Under the pieces are notes generated by a model. It was not told where the DNA came from and made no database searches. It saw only the letters and a list, made by a program, of their open reading frames with translations. Positions 3,867-11,436 of a stretch of 11,436 nt of DNA are shown here, piece after piece. Origin of the DNA: a virus; UHGV virus genome UHGV-1406243; one strand, given 5' to 3'. Both the position numbers and the translations under genes were made by a program. How positions within the stretch are numbered: the stretch's first letter is position 1; each line of letters opens with the position of its first letter.

Positions 3867-4166
3867 ATGAAACTTAAATATTCTGGCTTAACTGCCAGTG
3901 GCAACACTCACCCTAAATTTACGCGCGGCGATATTTACCGCGACCAGTACGGCGGCACGGTAATGATTAAGGGCGTGGAAGAACGGCGCGTAACCTACCG
4001 CCGTGAAGGTTACGAATATGATTGCGTGATGCCTGTTTATCAGTTCCGGCGTGATTTTTCTCTGGTACAGACCGCGCCGCATAACGTGTCCACCAGCAAC
4101 GCCAGGGCACGGGCAAACATCCAGAAGCTGAAAACCATGATTAACGGATTCAGGGGTAAAAAATGA
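3867..4166 (+). CDS. Hypothetical protein (99 aa)
   Basis: ATG 3867 is preceded by GGAG. Its stop overlaps the primase start (ATGA at 4163..4166). Confidence 0.7.
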   Translation: MKLKYSGLTASGNTHPKFTRGDIYRDQYGGTVMIKGVEERRVTYRREGYEYDCVMPVYQFRRDFSLVQTAPHNVSTSNARARANIQKLKTMINGFRGKK

Positions 4167-5917
4167 AACTGGCACCGAACGTAAAACAGCAGTCACGCGG
4201 CATAAAACACAAAGAAACAGAAGTCATTATTTTTGCGGGTAGTGATGCCTGGTCACACGCAAAACAATGGCAGGAACATGACGCGCGTATGGCCGGAGAT
4301 AATGAGCCTCCTGTGTGGCTTGGGGAGCAGCAGTTATCCGAACTGGATAAGCTGCAAATTGTGCCGGAAGGCAGAAAATCCGTGCGCATATTCAGGGCCG
4401 GATATCTTGCGCCAGTAATGATAAAGGCGATTGGTCAGAAGCTGGCGGCGGCAGGCGTACAGGATGCAAATTTTTACCCTGATGGTATGCACGGTCAGAA
4501 GGTGGAGAACTGGCGCGAATATCTGGCCCGTGAGCGCCAGAATCTTTCTGATGGTCTGGTCATTGAGCTTCCGGTAAAGCAAAAGGCGCAACTTTCGCAG
4601 ATGGCGGACAGTGAGCGCGCGCAGCTGCTTGCCGATCGCTTTGATGGCGTTTGCGTACATCCTGAAAGTGAAATCGTTCACGTATGGCGCGGCGGGGTAT
4701 GGTGTCCGGTCAGCACAATGGAACTTAGCCGCGAAATGGTGGCGATCTATTCAGAGCACAGGGCCACTTTCAGCAAGCGCGTAATCAATAACGCCGTGGA
4801 AGCGTTAAAAGTTATTGCCGAACCAATGGGCGAGCCGTCCGGCGATTTGTTGCCGTTCGCCAATGGTGCGCTTGACCTGAAAACGGGGGAATTTTCCCCG
4901 CACACGCCGGAGAACTGGATCACCACGCACAACGGCATTGAGTACACGCCACCAGCACCAGGGGAGAACATCCGCGATAACGCGCCAAACTTTCATAAAT
5001 GGCTTGAGCACGCAGCCGGAAAAGACCCGCGCAAGATGATGCGTATATGTGCCGCGCTGTACATGATTATGGCGAACCGGTACGACTGGCAGATGTTTAT
5101 TGAGGCCACCGGAGACGGCGGGAGCGGTAAAAGTACATTCACACACATAGCCAGCCTTCTGGCAGGGAAACAGAACACGGTAAGCGCTGAAATGACATCG
5201 CTTGATGATGCTGGTGGACGTGCGCAGGTTGTCGGGAGTCGTCTTATCGTCCTGGCTGACCAGCCGAAATATACAGGCGAAGGAACGGGCATCAAGAAAA
5301 TCACGGGCGGTGACCCCGTGGAAATTAACCCGAAATACGAAAAGCGTTTCACGGCGGTAATCAGGGCGGTGGTGCTGGCGACCAACAATAACCCGATGAT
5401 ATTCACCGAACGGGCCGGAGGTGTGGCACGTCGTCGCGTGATTTTCCGTTTCGACAATATCGTCAGTGAGGCCGAAAAAGACAGGGAGCTACCGGAAAAG
5501 ATCGCGGCTGAAATCCCTGTCATTATCCGCCGATTGCTGGCGAACTTTACCGACCCTGAGAAGGCACGGGCTTTACTACTGGAACAGCGTGACGGTGATG
5601 AAGCTCTGGCAATAAAGCAACAGACGGATCCGGTTATTGAGTTTTGCCAGTTCCTGAATTTTCTGGAGGAAGCACGCGGCCTGATGATGGGCGGCGGTGG
5701 CGATTCAGTGAAGTACACGACCAGAAACAGCCTTTACCGCGTCTATCTGGCGTTTATGGCGTACGCAGGCAGGAGCAAACCGCTAAACGTAAATGACTTT
5801 GGCAAGGCTATGAAGCCAGCCGCGAAAGTTTACGGACATGAATATATTACGCGGAAAGTTAAGGGAGTAACGCAGACTAACGCAATAACAACAGACGAGT
5901 GCGACGCGTTTTTATAA
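4163..5917 (+). CDS. Replication initiator: P4 alpha-like primase/helicase (D5-type SF3 NTPase domain)
   Basis: 584-aa ORF. Walker A GDGGSGKST and Walker B-like RLIVLADQ are read directly in the C-terminal half. Gene size and the iteron array immediately downstream match satellite Pri-Rep / P4 alpha proteins. The N-terminal primase domain was not confirmed motif by motif. Confidence 0.85.
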   Translation: MKLAPNVKQQSRGIKHKETEVIIFAGSDAWSHAKQWQEHDARMAGDNEPPVWLGEQQLSELDKLQIVPEGRKSVRIFRAGYLAPVMIKAIGQKLAAAGVQDANFYPDGMHGQKVENWREYLARERQNLSDGLVIELPVKQKAQLSQMADSERAQLLADRFDGVCVHPESEIVHVWRGGVWCPVSTMELSREMVAIYSEHRATFSKRVINNAVEALKVIAEPMGEPSGDLLPFANGALDLKTGEFSPHTPENWITTHNGIEYTPPAPGENIRDNAPNFHKWLEHAAGKDPRKMMRICAALYMIMANRYDWQMFIEATGDGGSGKSTFTHIASLLAGKQNTVSAEMTSLDDAGGRAQVVGSRLIVLADQPKYTGEGTGIKKITGGDPVEINPKYEKRFTAVIRAVVLATNNNPMIFTERAGGVARRRVIFRFDNIVSEAEKDRELPEKIAAEIPVIIRRLLANFTDPEKARALLLEQRDGDEALAIKQQTDPVIEFCQFLNFLEEARGLMMGGGGDSVKYTTRNSLYRVYLAFMAYAGRSKPLNVNDFGKAMKPAAKVYGHEYITRKVKGVTQTNAITTDECDAFL

Positions 5918-5929
5918 TTTTTTGTAATT

Positions 5930-6160
5930 GCTGTCTACCCTGTCTACCTGAGTAAAGAAAAATACATTTAATTCAGTGCATTAAGTTAGGTAGATAGCCT
6001 TTTTTTACTGTCTACCCACTATCTACCCTCTCTACCTGATTTTACCTGAATCAGACAGGGAGGTAGACACGGGGTAGATAGTGGATAAAAGCACTCTACC
6101 CCGCTGAAAGCCGCGCCATTACTGGTATGAGGGCCACTAAGGTAGATAAGGTAGACAAGG
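5930..6160. other. Putative origin of replication: iteron array of YCTACC / GGTAGAY motifs with dyad organisation; duplicated at 6379..6609
   Basis: At least 11 copies of the core (T/C)CTACC. Direct copies lie at 5933..6048 (TGTCTACCCTGTCTACCTG, TGTCTACCC, ATCTACCC, TCTACCTG) and inverted copies at 6061..6160 (GGTAGACAC, GGTAGATAG, GGTAGATAAGGTAGACAAGG), centred near 6055. It sits directly downstream of the primase gene. Confidence 0.55.
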
Positions 6161-6205
6161 GGAGGCACAACTCAAAACTTTTTAAACGAGGGGGTAAAAA
6201 TAAAT

Positions 6206-6262
6206 ATGCACACTTCAGGGAAATTTAATAAATCACTCAAAATGACTTTGGCAAGGCTATGA
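6206..6262 (+). pseudogene. Truncated duplicate of the start of the 92-aa gene (18 codons, then stop), created by the tandem duplication
   Basis: Same RBS and first 12 codons (MHTSGKFNKSLK) as the gene at 6655; the reading frame then runs into the duplicated primase 3' fragment and stops. Confidence 0.4.
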
Positions 6263-6654
6263 AGCCAGCCGCGAAAGTTTACGGACATGAATATATTACG
6301 CGGAAAGTTAAGGGAGTAACGCAGACTAACGCAATAACAACAGACGAGTGCGACGCGTTTTTATAATTTTTTGTAATTGCTGTCTACCCTGTCTACCTGA
6401 GTAAAGAAAAATACATTTAATTCAGTGCATTAAGTTAGGTAGATAGCCTTTTTTTACTGTCTACCCACTATCTACCCTCTCTACCTGATTTTACCTGAAT
6501 CAGACAGGGAGGTAGACACGGGGTAGATAGTGGATAAAAGCACTCTACCCCGCTGAAAGCCGCGCCATTACTGGTATGAGGGCCACTAAGGTAGATAAGG
6601 TAGACAAGGGGAGGCACAACTCAAAACTTTTTAAACGAGGGGGTAAAAATAAAT

Positions 6655-6933
6655 ATGCACACTTCAGGGAAATTTAATAAATCACTCAAAAAACGCAGAG
6701 ACAGAACAGAACCGAAATATCGCGCGTTAGACATGACAGAGCACGCTTTAAAGGTGGCAATCAGAACGATAGACCGCCACGCGGGGGAAGGATACGCGAA
6801 AGCACATCCCGAACTGATAAGCGCATTCATGACCACGACGGCGGCAAATTTTGCCACGCTGACAGAGCGGGAGATTGCCGAAGCGGAACAGGTAACAACC
6901 ATCAACGTTAAAACCGGAGAGGTGGAATCATGA
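6655..6933 (+). CDS. Hypothetical protein (92 aa)
   Basis: Strong RBS GAGGGGGT upstream; stop overlaps the ssb start (ATGA). Confidence 0.65.
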   Translation: MHTSGKFNKSLKKRRDRTEPKYRALDMTEHALKVAIRTIDRHAGEGYAKAHPELISAFMTTTAANFATLTEREIAEAEQVTTINVKTGEVES

Positions 6934-7767: not shown

Positions 7768-7974
7768 ATGGCTGAAGAGAAAAAAGGCGGTGTTTCGGTG
7801 TACATAAGCCCCGAAATCGTGGAGGTGCTCAAGCAGCGCCACAAAAAAAACTATGAGGCTGGCGTGGCGGCTGGACTGGATCCGCTGATGACGCCGGAGC
7901 CGTCGATAGGTTCACTTGTACGCTCTTATTTACTTGCGGCGCTTGGGATGCATAAAAATTATGGGGGTGAATAA
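7768..7974 (+). CDS. Hypothetical protein (68 aa), translationally coupled to the major capsid gene
   Basis: RBS AGAGGA upstream; its stop TAA overlaps the capsid ATG (TAATG). No recognisable similarity by eye. Confidence 0.65.
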   Translation: MAEEKKGGVSVYISPEIVEVLKQRHKKNYEAGVAAGLDPLMTPEPSIGSLVRSYLLAALGMHKNYGGE

Positions 7975-9029
7975 TGGCAGGCAAAGCAACGGCACTTAAC
8001 ACTAACCAGCTTTTCATGTACCTGAATCGCGGGGATATTGCGGATTTTAAATTCAGCCCTCTGTTTACTACGCTGTTTTTCCCGAACGTGGCGACATTCA
8101 GCACGCAAAACATCATGCTGGATACCCTGGACATTGAAGAAGTCACCATGTCGGCGTTTTGTTCGCCTATGGTGGGTAGCCAGGTTCAGCGCGATAAAGG
8201 GTACGAAACCAGCACGATTAAACCTGGCTACATGAAGCCAAAGCACGAAATCGATCCAACGAAAACCATCATGCGCATGGCTGGAGAAGATCCGGCACAG
8301 CTTAACGACCCTACCTATCGCCGTATGCGCCTGATTACTGGCAATATGCGCCGCCAGATAAACGCCATAAAAGCGCGCGTGGAATGGCTGGCGGTAAATG
8401 CGGTAACGACCGGAAAAAACATCATTGAGGGCGAAGGCATAGAGCGCTATGAAATCGACTGGAAGATACCGGAAAAAAACATCATAGAGCAGGCCGACGG
8501 GAAAAAATGGTCAGCGCAGGACAAAGAAACCCACGATCCAATCTATGATATCGAACTATACGCCGATCAGGCTGGTTGCCCCGCAAACGTCATGATTATG
8601 GGCGCTGAGGTATGGCGAACGTTACGCAGCTTTAAAAAATTCCGTGAGCTGTACGATCTTTCCCGTGGTTCAGAATCCGCCGCCGAACTGGCCTGTAAAA
8701 ACCTGGGCGAAGTGGTGAGCTTTAAAGGCTATCTTGGTGATCTGGCCCTTATCGTCTATTCCGGCAAATACACTGACAGCGATGGTACCGAAAAATATTT
8801 CCTTGAGCCTGATTTGCTGGTCCTAGGTAACACCAACAATAAAGGGCTGGTGGCCTATGGTGCGATAATGGATCAGGAAGCGGTAAGAACGGGCGCAACA
8901 CAAAACATGTTTTACCCGAAAAACTGGATTGAGGACGGCGATCCGGCGATTGAGTACGTGCAGACACACAGTGCACCGCAGCCGGTACCGGCAGATATTC
9001 GCAAATTTGTTACCGTCAAAATTGGTTAA
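7974..9029 (+). CDS. Major capsid protein, phage lambda gpE family
   Basis: Multiple collinear blocks match lambda gpE as I recall it: FKFSPLFTTLFF vs FKFDPLFLRLFF; PGYMKPKHEIDP vs PGYVKPKHEVNP; EDPAQLNDPTYRRMR vs EDPQNLADPAYRRRR; RGSESAAELACKNLGEVVSFKGYLGDLALIVYSGKY vs RGSNSELETAVKDLGKAVSYKGMYGDVAIVVYSGQY; YPKNWIEDGDPAIEY..SAP vs YPKNWVTTGDPAREF..SAP. Length 351 aa vs 341 aa. Confidence 0.92.
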   Translation: MAGKATALNTNQLFMYLNRGDIADFKFSPLFTTLFFPNVATFSTQNIMLDTLDIEEVTMSAFCSPMVGSQVQRDKGYETSTIKPGYMKPKHEIDPTKTIMRMAGEDPAQLNDPTYRRMRLITGNMRRQINAIKARVEWLAVNAVTTGKNIIEGEGIERYEIDWKIPEKNIIEQADGKKWSAQDKETHDPIYDIELYADQAGCPANVMIMGAEVWRTLRSFKKFRELYDLSRGSESAAELACKNLGEVVSFKGYLGDLALIVYSGKYTDSDGTEKYFLEPDLLVLGNTNNKGLVAYGAIMDQEAVRTGATQNMFYPKNWIEDGDPAIEYVQTHSAPQPVPADIRKFVTVKIG

Positions 9030-9041
9030 CGGGGGGATTCT

Positions 9042-9377
9042 ATGGACACTCCATACATTGAGTTATTTGCAGGCAGTCAGCGGGTCGCCACGACGCTGGT
9101 ACATTTTGCCGCTGATGCTGGCGTTATTCAGGAATTTACCCCGCTGATGCTGGCAGACAATGGCGAGTTTAAGCCGTGGGATGGTCAGGAATCTGGCAAG
9201 GCTGTTTATCTGACCTCGTACCCTGTGGACACGTCAAAGCAGAAATCAGCACAGTGTTACAAGACGGGGATTTTCAATATTGCCGCCGTTAACTGGCCTG
9301 AGAGCGTCGACACCGATGCGAAAAAATGCGCCGCCTTTGCGGGTTCCGGCGTATCCGTTCAGCCGCTGGCCCGATAA
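9042..9377 (+). CDS. Head decoration protein, phage lambda gpD family
   Basis: 111 aa vs 110 aa for lambda D. Blocks TPLMLADNGEFKPWDG vs TPLMLDTSSRKLVAWDG and YKTGIFNIAAVNWPESVDTDAKKCAAFAGSGVSVQ vs [44 protein letters not shown] upstream. Confidence 0.88.
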   Translation: MDTPYIELFAGSQRVATTLVHFAADAGVIQEFTPLMLADNGEFKPWDGQESGKAVYLTSYPVDTSKQKSAQCYKTGIFNIAAVNWPESVDTDAKKCAAFAGSGVSVQPLAR

Positions 9378-9832: not shown

Positions 9833-9912
9833 ACGGGTCCTTTCCGGCATATGGACCCGTTACGGGGCGGCGACCTCGCGGGTTTTCGCTATTTATGACG
9901 TTTTTCCGTGAA
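9830..9912 (+). other. Lambda-type cos site: cosQ-like TTTACGGGTCCTTTCCGG, cosN with the 12-nt cohesive-end sequence GGGCGGCGACCT (9864..9875), and a proximal cosB with one R3-like element
   Basis: 40 contiguous bases at 9858..9897 (GTTACGGGGCGGCGACCTCGCGGGTTTTCGCTATTTATGA) match the junction of the lambda right and left ends as I recall it, and TTTACGGGTCCTTTCCGG matches the lambda right-end sequence. It lies about 90 bp upstream of the Nu1-like gene, as in lambda. Confidence 0.8.
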
Positions 9913-9965
9913 GGTGACACCACCACCACTTGATTAATATTTAACCATGCAGTTAAGGTAACATT

Positions 9966-10400
9966 ATGATTGATAAAGCTTGTTTTGTAAGTCAGCAGGA
10001 AATAGCTGAACATTTCAAGGTTAACAGAACCACTATTCGCGCATGGACCAAACAGGGGATGCCGTATCTTAATGCGGATCGCGGAAAGTCTGGCGGTTAT
10101 CACATCGGGCATACATTGCTTTGGTCTTCAGGTAAAAGCCGTCTTGAGACCATCAGATATCACGTAGAAACCAGTGCGCTGGAAAAAATTATGTTTGCCA
10201 GGCTGCTTTCATCTGAGCGTGACGAGTACTCCAGTGAAGAAACAGAACATCGATTTGATGAAGGTTTGCAGATTTACGGCTATTCACCGGAAGATGTGAG
10301 CAAGGCACGAAATAAAATGGCTGGCTTTCTGGCTGGGTGGCGTCATGCCATAAGCGTTCGCCGTGCCAGCATGGAGCAATCAGCCGATACAGAACAGTAA
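9966..10400 (+). CDS. Terminase small subunit homologue, lambda Nu1-like N-terminal DNA-binding domain with a divergent, shorter C-terminal part
   Basis: VSQQEIAEHFKVNRTTIRAWTKQGMPYLNADRGKSGG aligns with lambda Nu1 VNKKQLADIFGASIRTIQNWQEQGMPVLRGGGKGNEV. 144 aa vs 181 aa; I could not align the C-terminal half to Nu1. Sits directly downstream of the cos site. Confidence 0.8.
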   Translation: MIDKACFVSQQEIAEHFKVNRTTIRAWTKQGMPYLNADRGKSGGYHIGHTLLWSSGKSRLETIRYHVETSALEKIMFARLLSSERDEYSSEETEHRFDEGLQIYGYSPEDVSKARNKMAGFLAGWRHAISVRRASMEQSADTEQ

Positions 10401-10453
10401 AGCCGATAACTTGTTAATCACTCGCAGCAATGCATGTGATTTGTGCACACTTT

Positions 10454-10568
10454 CGGTTAACTGGTTCGATGTCCGGTTTTAGTGTCTGTTTTTTGCGCAT
10501 GTCCGGTTCATGGAAAGCATGTTTTTATATTTTTCATATGGTTAACTTGCAGAGAAACCGGACATGGA
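10454..10568 (-). repeat. cosB-like repeat set belonging to the inverted cos: three ATGTCCGGTT elements (10470..10479 and 10499..10508 direct, 10557..10566 inverted) separated by an AT-rich stretch (10520..10545), plus a GGTTAAC duplication
   Basis: Repeats are read directly. Their spacing from the inverted cosN (about 40, 100 and 135 bp) and the AT-rich spacer resemble the lambda R3-I1-R2-R1 layout, but with a different R sequence (TCCGGTT vs lambda CGTTTCC). Confidence 0.45.
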
Positions 10569-10570
10569 TC

Positions 10571-10654
10571 CCGAAAAATTTTCATAAATAGTGAAAACGC
10601 GCGAGGTCGCCGCCCCGTAACGGGCCATAATTCCAGGAAGGACCCGACGACACC
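10571..10654 (-). other. Second lambda-type cos site in inverted orientation (reverse complement of cosN AGGTCGCCGCCC at 10604..10615, with cosQ-like and proximal cosB flanks)
   Basis: The reverse complement of 10571..10654 reads GGTCCTTCCTGG..GTTACGGGGCGGCGACCTCGCGCGTTTTCACTATTTATGAAAATTTTTCGG, matching the lambda cos junction on both sides of cosN. It is an inverted copy of the cos at 9830..9912. Confidence 0.75.
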
Positions 10655-10679
10655 AGACTATCAGAGCGATGGGGGCACA

Positions 10680-10961
10680 ATGACAGAAGCCGAACTACTG
10701 GGATTAATCCGCCGCGTTACCGGAATCAGCCAGCAGCATGACGAACAGGCCACGCAGCCGGACAGCGTGACCGCCGAAAATTACGCGCGTGTGGTTGCTG
10801 AGGTGATGCGCCGTGATGGTATCCAGCTTAATGATGTGGATATGCGCAACATACGGATCCGCGTTCTTGAAATGCTGGCCTACAATCGCCGCGTGGCACT
10901 GTATCGGGAAACGGAGAAAATTACGTACCACTGGAAGAAGCCGGAGCGGTTACGGCGTTAA
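10680..10961 (+). CDS. Hypothetical protein (93 aa)
   Basis: ATG 10680 follows GGGGG by about 5 nt. It is in frame with the 159-aa ORF in the track, whose upstream extension runs through the inverted cos site and is unlikely to be coding. Confidence 0.55.
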   Translation: MTEAELLGLIRRVTGISQQHDEQATQPDSVTAENYARVVAEVMRRDGIQLNDVDMRNIRIRVLEMLAYNRRVALYRETEKITYHWKKPERLRR

Positions 10962-10967
10962 CGAGTA

Positions 10968-11012
10968 GCGACATACCGTGACGGAGAGTGACAACCAGTG
11001 ACACGCCGTGAC
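10968..11012 (+). repeat. Phased array of GTGAC pentamers at exact 10-bp spacing (10978, 10988, 10998, 11008, plus GCGAC at 10968)
   Basis: Read directly: aGCGACataccGTGACggagaGTGACaaccaGTGACacgccGTGACaaaag. Further GTGACC / GGTCAT motifs and the near-palindrome TGGTCATAATGACCA (11122..11136) follow downstream. Confidence 0.6.
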
Positions 11013-11298
11013 AAAAGACGGTTTAACCGTTAATTAAAAATTGACGGGATTTTGTGCTTTCCGGACGACGTGACCAACGTCATTTTTTAGCGAAAAGTTC
11101 TGATTAAGGTCATTGTCTGAATGGTCATAATGACCACTCCTACAAAACAGGTAAAGCCCACCAGCCTGATTAACAGTTAACCGGAAAAAAAATCCGGTAG
11201 CCCCGTTATGGGGATCCCCATATCAACATTAACGCCCCTCATGAATTAGCGCGCTTCCCCCTGGAAAGATGACCCGCCTGTATATTTCTTGTGTCTAT

Positions 11299-11355
11299 TT
11301 GTTCCACGTTGTTTCATACAGTGCACCGAACGGTGTAGTCACTGGTGTAGTCATT
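11299..11355. repeat. attR-side arm region: TTGTTCCACGTTGTTTCA followed by tandem 12-mers GGTGTAGTCACT / GGTGTAGTCATT (11332..11355); direct copy of 96..161
   Basis: CGGTGTAGTCACTGGTGTAGTCA is read at 11331..11353, identical to 137..159. Confidence 0.5.
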
Positions 11356-11427
11356 TTGCGATTTATGGCACTTTTTGTAGTGCAAATCATTTAATTAAAT
11401 CAATGCGTTAAGTGAAATTAGTTATAT

Positions 11428-11436
11428 ATAACAGCA
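11428..11436. repeat. 9-bp direct repeat ATAACAGCA, partner of 1..9
   Basis: Exact match to positions 1..9 at the opposite window edge. Confidence 0.3.

Follow-up and report, generated by a model that had tools for sequence, protein, structure and literature searches.

The right end of the island

The viral genome UHGV-1406243 is 11,436 bp long and was analyzed at its full length (hereafter the window). To judge from its gene layout, it is a complete phage-inducible chromosomal island (PICI), a kind of phage satellite, of the EcCICFT073 type, and it ends exactly at its attachment sites. Its right end is matched with 100% identity in Escherichia coli 042, where the element interrupts tqsA. We focused on an array of short GTGAC repeats that lies between the last gene of the island and the right attachment site (attR). 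This end of the window contains the following features.

10680-10961, + strand: last gene, 93 aa from MTEAELL, PHROG family phrog_1561 (function not known), with the end of the stop codon at 10961
10968-11012, + strand: phased array of five 10-bp units (GCGACATACC, GTGACGGAGA, GTGACAACCA, GTGACACGCC, GTGAC), four perfect and the first degenerate
11013-11022, + strand: junction AAAAGACGGT, the sole flank common to both types of downstream context
11013-11060, + strand: AT-rich tract of 48 bp with 31% G+C, directly 3' of the array
11067-11089, + strand: hairpin GACGT-GACCA-ACGTC (11067-11081) followed by T6, the first terminator-like site past the last gene
11108-11136: GGTCAT half-site (11108-11113) and perfect palindrome TGGTCATAATGACCA (11122-11136), the right boundary of the array module
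11332-11353, + strand: doubled 12-bp motif GGTGTAGTCACTGGTGTAGTCA (GGTGTAGTCACT GGTGTAGTCA), repeated at 138-159
11428-11436, + strand: attR copy of the attachment core, ATAACAGCA

The four perfect GTGAC pentamers start at 10978, 10988, 10998 and 11008, in exact steps of 10 bp. They are preceded by a unit with one mismatch (GCGAC, starting at 10968), and this first unit is GTGAC in related islands, for instance in L004. An earlier note on this sequence had described four to five equally spaced copies between the last gene and attR, and both the count and the location agree with what we find (last stop codon ending at 10961, attR core at 11428-11436). Tandem Repeats Finder also reports an array of period 10, at 10987-11014. 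Because the + strand of the window contains just 11 GTGAC pentamers, which is about the number expected by chance, the phasing and not the abundance of the pentamer is the signal. No other phased GTGAC was found in the window, for instance at promoters. The note had proposed that the periodicity be compared with shuffled sequence. We scored 300 dinucleotide-preserving shuffles for equally spaced runs of 5-mers, whatever their sequence, with periods of 6 to 15. The longest run was two in 262 shuffles and three in the other 38, and a run of four was never seen (0 out of 300). The array is therefore real and non-random.

In order to assess whether the array is under constraint, we compared the four core units across ten distinct array variants from related islands. 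All five variable sites fall within the 15 spacer positions and none within the 20 pentamer positions (Fisher p=0.009). The units have only the pentamer in common and differ from one another at every spacer position. This substitution pattern is of the type seen in binding sites, as judged from the variants compared, and not that of a recent slippage product. Arrays of iterons consist of at least three helix-phased direct repeats; here there are 4+1 units, and four to five in the relatives. Across 282 E. coli genomes the array is preserved with an identity of 88-100%. Its geometry does have exceptions: one variant has a 9-bp spacing, another lacks one unit, and the first unit is GCGAC in the window. 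The earlier suggestion of a protein-binding array on one face of the helix is thus supported by the restriction of variable sites to the spacers, and also by the fact that homology between islands starts at the array.

The junction to the right of the array contains a run of A that is four to seven long in the relatives. The AT-rich tract includes a weak hairpin (CCGTTAATTAAAAATTGACGG, 11027-11047), and islands with the second type of downstream context have a different AT-rich flank 3' of the array. The hairpin at 11067-11089 is terminator-like in sequence, with a 5-bp stem that contains G+C and is followed by T6, 3' of the last gene. Its stem is conserved in the relatives while its loop varies. 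The GTGACC at 11070, which the earlier note had listed after the pentamers, sits in this loop and is not conserved, being replaced by GTGGCT or GTGGCC in the relatives. We found no promoter-like site on either strand in 10400-11436, and a promoter with an upstream activator site was dropped as an identity for the array. The array probably lies in the transcribed tail of the operon, 5' of the first terminator-like hairpin.

The GTGACC and GGTCAT hexamers had also been described as palindromes. They are not mutual reverse complements, but a true palindrome, TGGTCATAATGACCA, is present at 11122-11136. Its generalised form is TGGTCA(T/A)(A/G)ATGACCA (15 bp, with the variant TGGTGATAATCACCA), and it is also found near the right end of L002, L127, L128 and L004, including in islands that do not carry the array. 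L002 has one copy on each side of the array module (about 12975-12990 and 13145-13160), and L125 has a half copy, ATGACCAC, to the left of the module. This conserved palindrome could be an operator or a recombination breakpoint.

An optional module among related islands

We searched for the array and its neighbours in 5426 complete E. coli genomes. The array is present in 282 of these genomes, with 312 copies in total, and the adjoining last gene in 1567. The islands that carry the array differ in cargo and location. Some are Rpp/lambda-cos islands in tqsA, like the window and L001. One (L002) has a ClpP-capsid fusion and no annotated terminase gene, and lies between cspD and clpS. Others (L003 and L004) are capsid-forming PICIs with their own HNH-TerS-TerL, located at cspD/clpS and in yifB, and three more (L247-L249) adjoin allC, lie inside a phage terminase gene or lie inside an IS110 transposase gene. 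In all, the islands that carry the array represent three different packaging modules and no fewer than six sites of insertion.

Similarity between these islands begins at the first unit of the array, and the sequences to its left are unrelated. Two alternative contexts follow on the right, and their common part is AAAAGACGGT only. In several islands the array immediately follows the stop codon of the last gene, and in others 90-400 bp of unrelated modules lie in between. Judged from these comparisons, the array is a discrete, optional accessory module that moves between islands. It is not mentioned in the published PICI papers that we consulted, and a comparison of 10660-11300 with the phage collection gave no similar record.

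The last gene and the terminal region also occur without the array, in an O157:H7 island (L127), in a helper-embedded island (L128) and in EcCICFT073 itself (L252), which has no GTGAC-N5-GTGAC anywhere. EcCICFT073 excises, replicates, is packaged and transfers at high frequency (PMC6092414; PMC6739421). Since it does all of this without the array, the array is dispensable for every core step, and its distribution places it outside the excision and packaging machinery. The earlier note had named absence from otherwise conserved homologues, with no phenotype on deletion, as what would refute its reading. Such absence is what we find (282 versus 1567 genomes, and EcCICFT073), and it argues against a role in the core life cycle.

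A separate observation concerns the gap between the last gene and attR of related islands, which holds one to six copies of a ~40-55-bp unit (L252:23655-23860, L128:1985-2400, L127:2215-2400, L125:3285-3520, L247:295-705 and L002:12915-12960); the window has none. The unit has conserved flanks, YTGATWnTTYC..AA on the 5' side and ..TCGG on the 3' side, and a central hairpin. Both sides of the stem are changed between copies (TTCGCC/GGCGAA, CCCCC/GGGGG, CGCAA/TTGCG, CCTCA/TGAGG and CCTGC/GCAGG), which suggests a structured RNA or DNA element.

The remaining features of the window are listed below.

185-1399: P4-like integrase with an arm-binding domain
within 1457-1726: AlpA-family protein
between the AlpA-family protein and the primase: DUF4222 protein
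4163-5917: primase, 584 aa
5900-6650: iteron-rich origin region 3' of the primase, with TCTACC-type iterons
between the origin region and the capsid gene: SSB
7974-9029: lambda gpE-like capsid protein
9042-9377: decoration protein
9834-9911: cos1, lambda-type, with cosN GGGCGGCGACCT at 9865-9876
9966-10400: rpp-like 144-aa protein with a Nu1-like helix-turn-helix
10569-10646: cos2, in inverted orientation, with cosN at 10604-10615

The traits of the EcCICFT073 type found in the window are int, alpA, a primase with an origin, lambda-like capsid and decoration genes, and the order cos1-rpp-inverted cos2, all within about 11 kb. We assign the island to this type because its layout agrees with the published description of EcCICFT073, which has a capsid gene (c1499), a decoration gene (c1500), two cos sites and RppA, a protein that redirects the small terminase of the helper (PMC6092414; PMC6739421). 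The two cos sites of the window, each made of cosQ and the cosN GGGCGGCGACCT, are 82% complementary, bracket the rpp-like gene and agree with the published cos1/cos2 pair. Because cos2 is inverted, its cosB side is directed back to rpp. A perfect tandem duplication of 449 bp (two copies, 5791-6691) spans the primase 3' end as well as the iteron-rich origin region, with the repeats CTGTCTACC, ACTATCTACCC and TAAGGTAGA. The island therefore has two copies of its presumed origin.

Two further observations concern the left part of the window. A 10-bp direct repeat, ACAATAAGAC, occurs 2.2 times at 1481-1502, just 5' of or within the start of the AlpA-family open reading frame (ORF), and is a candidate regulator-binding site. 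On the minus strand, 2533-2605 weakly resembles the SymR antitoxin RNA family, below threshold (33 bits versus a gathering score of 61, E=0.009).

Phased GTGAC arrays in phage replication-initiator genes

Four exact GTGAC-N5 units occur in at least 120 IMG/VR contigs (L005-L124), and 6 of the 120 matches listed belong to the PICI family of the window. As controls we used GATGC and GACTG, two pentamers of the same composition. Three different spacers were present in 74 of the 120 GTGAC matches listed, compared with 3 out of 54 for GATGC and 4 out of 64 for GACTG, and phased GTGAC with free spacers is therefore strongly over-represented.

More than half of the listed arrays (67 out of 120) are embedded in an ORF that runs on the opposite strand. 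These ORFs encode members of a single protein family, whose N-terminus resembles WLRLWHDMPNDPKWR. The PHROGs names for this family are replication initiation protein, primosomal protein and replisome organiser. The form found in E. coli carries a DnaT C-terminal domain, and the next gene encodes a DnaB-type helicase. Several of the unclustered matches are divergent initiators, and one array lies directly 5' of a Phage_rep_org_N gene. Within the initiator genes the arrays have four to six copies, with neighbouring copies 10 bp apart in 235 cases and 11 bp apart in 64 (among the matches listed); the array of the window has the same core and falls within the same range of spacing and copy number. 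Often there are two clusters, the second adjoining an AT-rich repeat. For instance, phage Evi has the organiser gene in the position of lambda O (after the repressor, cro-like and cII-like genes), and this gene (L126:2507-3577) contains two arrays, of four and five GTCAC at 10-11 bp, of which the second is followed by an AT-rich repeat. Organiser-type initiators are present in 2256 of the 5426 complete E. coli genomes (42%), so potential partner initiators are abundant. As a side effect at the protein level, the arrays impose peptide motifs such as ..VT..H..S..VT.. on the initiator.

Origins within initiator genes are well known. Ori-lambda lies inside gene O and is bound by lambda O, and SPP1 oriL lies inside gene 38 and is bound by G38P. 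By analogy with these two systems, we infer that the organisers bind the GTGAC arrays; the arrays in their genes are most simply explained as origins bound by the proteins encoded around them. We found no description of GTGAC iterons or of replisome-organiser iterons in the literature.

We propose that the array of the window is an orphan iteron-like array that would be bound in trans by the replisome organiser of a phage, and that it would act as a decoy or as an auxiliary origin. We give this reading a probability of roughly 0.3. The binder would be a winged-helix replication initiator of phage type, the counterpart of lambda O, and would come from a co-resident or infecting lambdoid phage. 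As a decoy, the amplified island would titrate the initiator and so damp the replication of the phage; as an auxiliary origin, the array would recruit the phage initiator and helicase loader to the island. A more specific version, in which the array is a gene-less cassette of ~50 bp that is exchanged between islands as a unit and that soaks up or exploits, after amplification of the satellite, an initiator used by prophages in about 40% of E. coli genomes, seems to us rather unlikely as a whole; it would be a minimal non-coding means of disturbing or hijacking phage replication. The earlier note had listed a second replication element and a helper-factor binding array among its candidates, and the GTGAC-N5 arrays inside phage replication-initiator genes lend these two circumstantial support.

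The array resembles the iterons of phage initiator genes (ori-lambda, SPP1 oriL and the genes of the Evi/Tritos type) in having four to six direct repeats with a conserved core and free spacers at 10-11 bp, an AT-rich tract alongside and a transcribed location (a probable one in the case of the array), and it has the GTGAC pentamer in common with the Evi/Tritos-type arrays. Unlike them, it is an orphan with no initiator gene around it or next to it, in an island that carries a primase and TCTACC-type iterons of its own. These iterons (5900-6650) differ from the array in sequence and lie 3' of the primase gene, and we rejected the array as the island's own origin for this reason. The N-terminal profile of the organisers gave no match among the ORFs of the window (best E=0.36). 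Since no ORF of the window resembles the DNA-binding domain of an organiser, a binder of this type would have to be supplied in trans. There is a precedent for a decoy, since cloned iterons can silence phage replication (Hayes et al. 2012, PMC3349717). In that system of inhibition by plasmids with part of ori-lambda, extra iterons on another replicon silence the phage, as in the decoy that we propose; it differs in that it concerns lambda O iterons and also needs oop RNA transcription (PMC3349717).

Several observations weigh against binding by an organiser. Relative to the orientation of the motif, the AT-rich tract beside the array (48 bp, 31% G+C), a candidate unwinding region, is on the opposite side from that in the phage arrays. 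The bases that flank the pentamer also differ: the base before GTGAC is C or T in 91% of the phage-array units (among the matches listed), whereas in the island array A precedes two of the four perfect units and the spacers are A-rich. The elements in common are the pentamer and the spacing only, and binding at the island array is putative. The geometric constraint is not strict, with one 9-bp spacing and one loss of a unit among the variants. In addition, the pentamer is not exclusive to initiators. The contigs of one family with high G+C (L006, L017, L038, L040, L074, L096, L100, L118 and L121) have a near-perfect GTGAC(attca/aaacg) tandem array in the short gap between the portal gene and the ORF upstream of it, which is probably the large terminase, and two unrelated contigs have four GTGAC units beside tyrosine integrase genes (L091, 118 bp 5' of int, and L093), where such arrays may be arm-type sites in some elements. 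Finally, the known helpers lambda, phi80, HK106 and HK446 (PMC6092414; bioRxiv 10.1101/2022.09.08.507074) are absent from the 24 phage records with the initiator domain.

Other explanations and significance

The array could instead be the site of a DNA-binding protein, encoded by the island or by the host, that acts where the operon ends, for instance as a roadblock or a regulator of read-through into attP and int. We regard this as possible, although doubtful. It would suit the position of the array, which in every case comes after the last gene but before the first terminator-like hairpin; in several islands it abuts that gene's stop codon. One candidate binder is the 93-aa product of the last gene, which is predicted to be a small helical protein with a basic tail. 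However, the last gene occurs in 1567 genomes and the array in only 282, and in other islands the two are separated by the 90-400 bp of unrelated modules described above. The product belongs to no Pfam family and to a PHROG family without known function. With 38 clusters among 1.8 billion representatives, it is a very narrow protein family, and a search of one genome per species gave a Shigella locus as the sole match. The AlphaFold model is weak (predicted local distance difference test score, pLDDT, of 65), and Foldseek gave no match to the PDB at E<1. We rejected this product as the binder; as the neighbour of the array, it is at most a candidate partner.

The other candidate under this explanation is a host winged-helix response regulator of the OmpR/PhoB type. 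These regulators bind head-to-tail with a spacing of 10-11 bp. The pho-box half-site is CTGTCAY. OmpR recognises 10-bp units in tandem that contain G..AC. The reverse strand of the array, TGTCAC, resembles the pho-box half-site, and we consider this a lead only. Pho boxes have an 11-bp spacing and AT-rich spacers, unlike the array, and there is neither another phased GTGAC in the window nor a promoter-like site nearby on either strand. A regulator of this type was set aside as a weak lead.

It is also conceivable, but rather improbable, that the array is a functionless relic, that is, a hitch-hiking tandem array in a mosaic region, perhaps derived from an old phage origin. The array is found in only ~15% of islands with the neighbouring gene and is absent from the functional prototype EcCICFT073, its copy number varies from four to five with one 9-bp spacing, and the region as a whole is pieced together from small cassettes with repeated palindromes at their borders. 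Recent slippage, however, would not leave units that are alike in the pentamer only, with every spacer position variable between them. The pentamers are spared by substitutions (p=0.009), and the identity of 88-100% is maintained in 282 genomes across differing insertion sites and cargo.

A recombination accessory, such as arm-type sites for the integrase or a filament of AlpA/excisionase at attR, is very unlikely. The array does lie on the attR side, distal to int, where lambda-like excisionases bind. The island encodes an AlpA-family protein, phased direct repeats do bind excisionases and arm-binding domains, and the two integrase-adjoining arrays of unrelated viral contigs provide a parallel. 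Known excisionase filaments form on phased repeats (lambda Xis at X1-X1.5-X2, P22 Xis and the P2 Cox boxes), and like the array these are direct repeats about one helical turn apart, bound cooperatively head-to-tail. Unlike the array, they lie within ~100-150 bp of the core in a fixed geometry and are essential for excision.

The arm sites of the island are already accounted for by other repeats. The 9-bp att core ATAACAGCA is found at 1-9 (attL) and 11428-11436 (attR), and, measured from the midpoint of the reconstructed attP, the doubled 12-bp motif lies at ~+145 (138-159) and ~-89 (11332-11353). P4 attP has annotated arm repeats with an equal layout, with 12-bp tandem doublets on either side of the core, and helper-embedded PICIs have a 'doubled motif' at -81 and +132 (PMC10111431). 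Because of this agreement, the 12-bp doublets and not the GTGAC array are likely the arm-type integrase sites. The array is similar to them in being a set of short direct repeats in the neighbourhood of att, and its satellite likewise has a P4-like integrase. However, the doublets (GGTGTAGTCACT twice in the window) are 12 bp long and lie at fixed distances on both sides of the core, whereas the array is one-sided, far from the core and at a variable distance. It is 420-464 bp from the core, and its distance to the arm doublet is ~350 bp in the window, ~580 bp in L002 and ~680 bp in L004. An intasome element would need a fixed geometry. Moreover, the arm motif varies by island (GTAGTCAC versus GTAGTTAA, the latter in the cspD/clpS islands) whereas the array is unchanged, and the array is missing from most islands with the same kind of integrase. 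After the comparison with P4 attP we rejected integrase arm sites as the identity of the array. Binding by AlpA was rejected as well: there is no GTGAC near alpA or its promoter, and EcCICFT073, which has int and alpA, excises and integrates without any GTGAC-N5-GTGAC (PMC6092414). The assembly of an excision complex, which had been the first candidate in the earlier note, is unlikely on this evidence.

An RNA-level element in the 3' untranslated region of the operon transcript, structured or protein-bound, is highly improbable. The array lies 5' of the first terminator-like hairpin and is probably transcribed, the 141-nt RNA folds better than shuffled sequences (z=-2.7), and a predicted 12-bp helix pairs units of the array with the downstream UUGUGCUUUCCG. 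L247 and L045 carry changes that break this helix without compensation, and none of the islands with the second type of downstream context has its 3' arm. A strict 10-bp period is meaningful for duplex DNA and not for RNA, and the sequence matched no Rfam family. The RNA element was therefore dropped.

A packaging accessory site, with the array acting as cosB-like R elements that Rpp-TerS or a small terminase encoded by the island would bind, is scarcely credible. Small terminases bind repeated sites, and the R elements of PICI cosB are undefined (PMC6739421). The lambda cosB R sites and the PICI cosB for Rpp-TerS (PMC6739421) are repeated sites for winged-helix proteins, the latter in the same kind of island, and binding at the array is putative. 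A sequence just right of cos1, GTGAAGGTGAC (9909-9918), lies between its cosN and the rpp-like gene, inside the undefined PICI cosB, and has a possible link to the GTGAC motif. Yet cosB lies between cosN and terS/rpp, whereas ~1.1 kb separates the array from cos1, and with respect to the inverted cos2 it lies on the cosQ side. It occurs equally in islands with three unrelated packaging modules (Rpp/lambda-cos, ClpP-capsid fusion and HNH-TerS-TerL capsid-forming islands), and it is missing from the efficiently packaged EcCICFT073 (PMC6092414), whose cos1/cosB was mapped functionally beside rpp (PMC6739421). On its position and its distribution across packaging modules we rejected this candidate of the earlier note.

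A MatP site, suggested by the half-site, was rejected because the repeats are direct while matS is GTGAC-RNY-GTCAC, and the single inverted pair nearby has the wrong spacing.

Phased protein-binding repeats are a well-known kind of element, and an orphan copy in a satellite would be a new form of it. Satellites hijack the capsids, terminases and regulators of their helpers. We know of no description of a PICI that uses or sabotages a phage replication initiator by means of a bare DNA decoy. If the array is a relic, it is merely a tidy example of a modular repeat. If the array binds a replisome organiser, as we propose, it would add a non-coding layer to the conflict between satellites and phages, and it would account in part for the puzzling mosaic at the right end of these islands. 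Phased GTGAC arrays also mark a very common family of phage replication-initiator genes, and they may thus provide a simple signature for locating the origins of many temperate phages.

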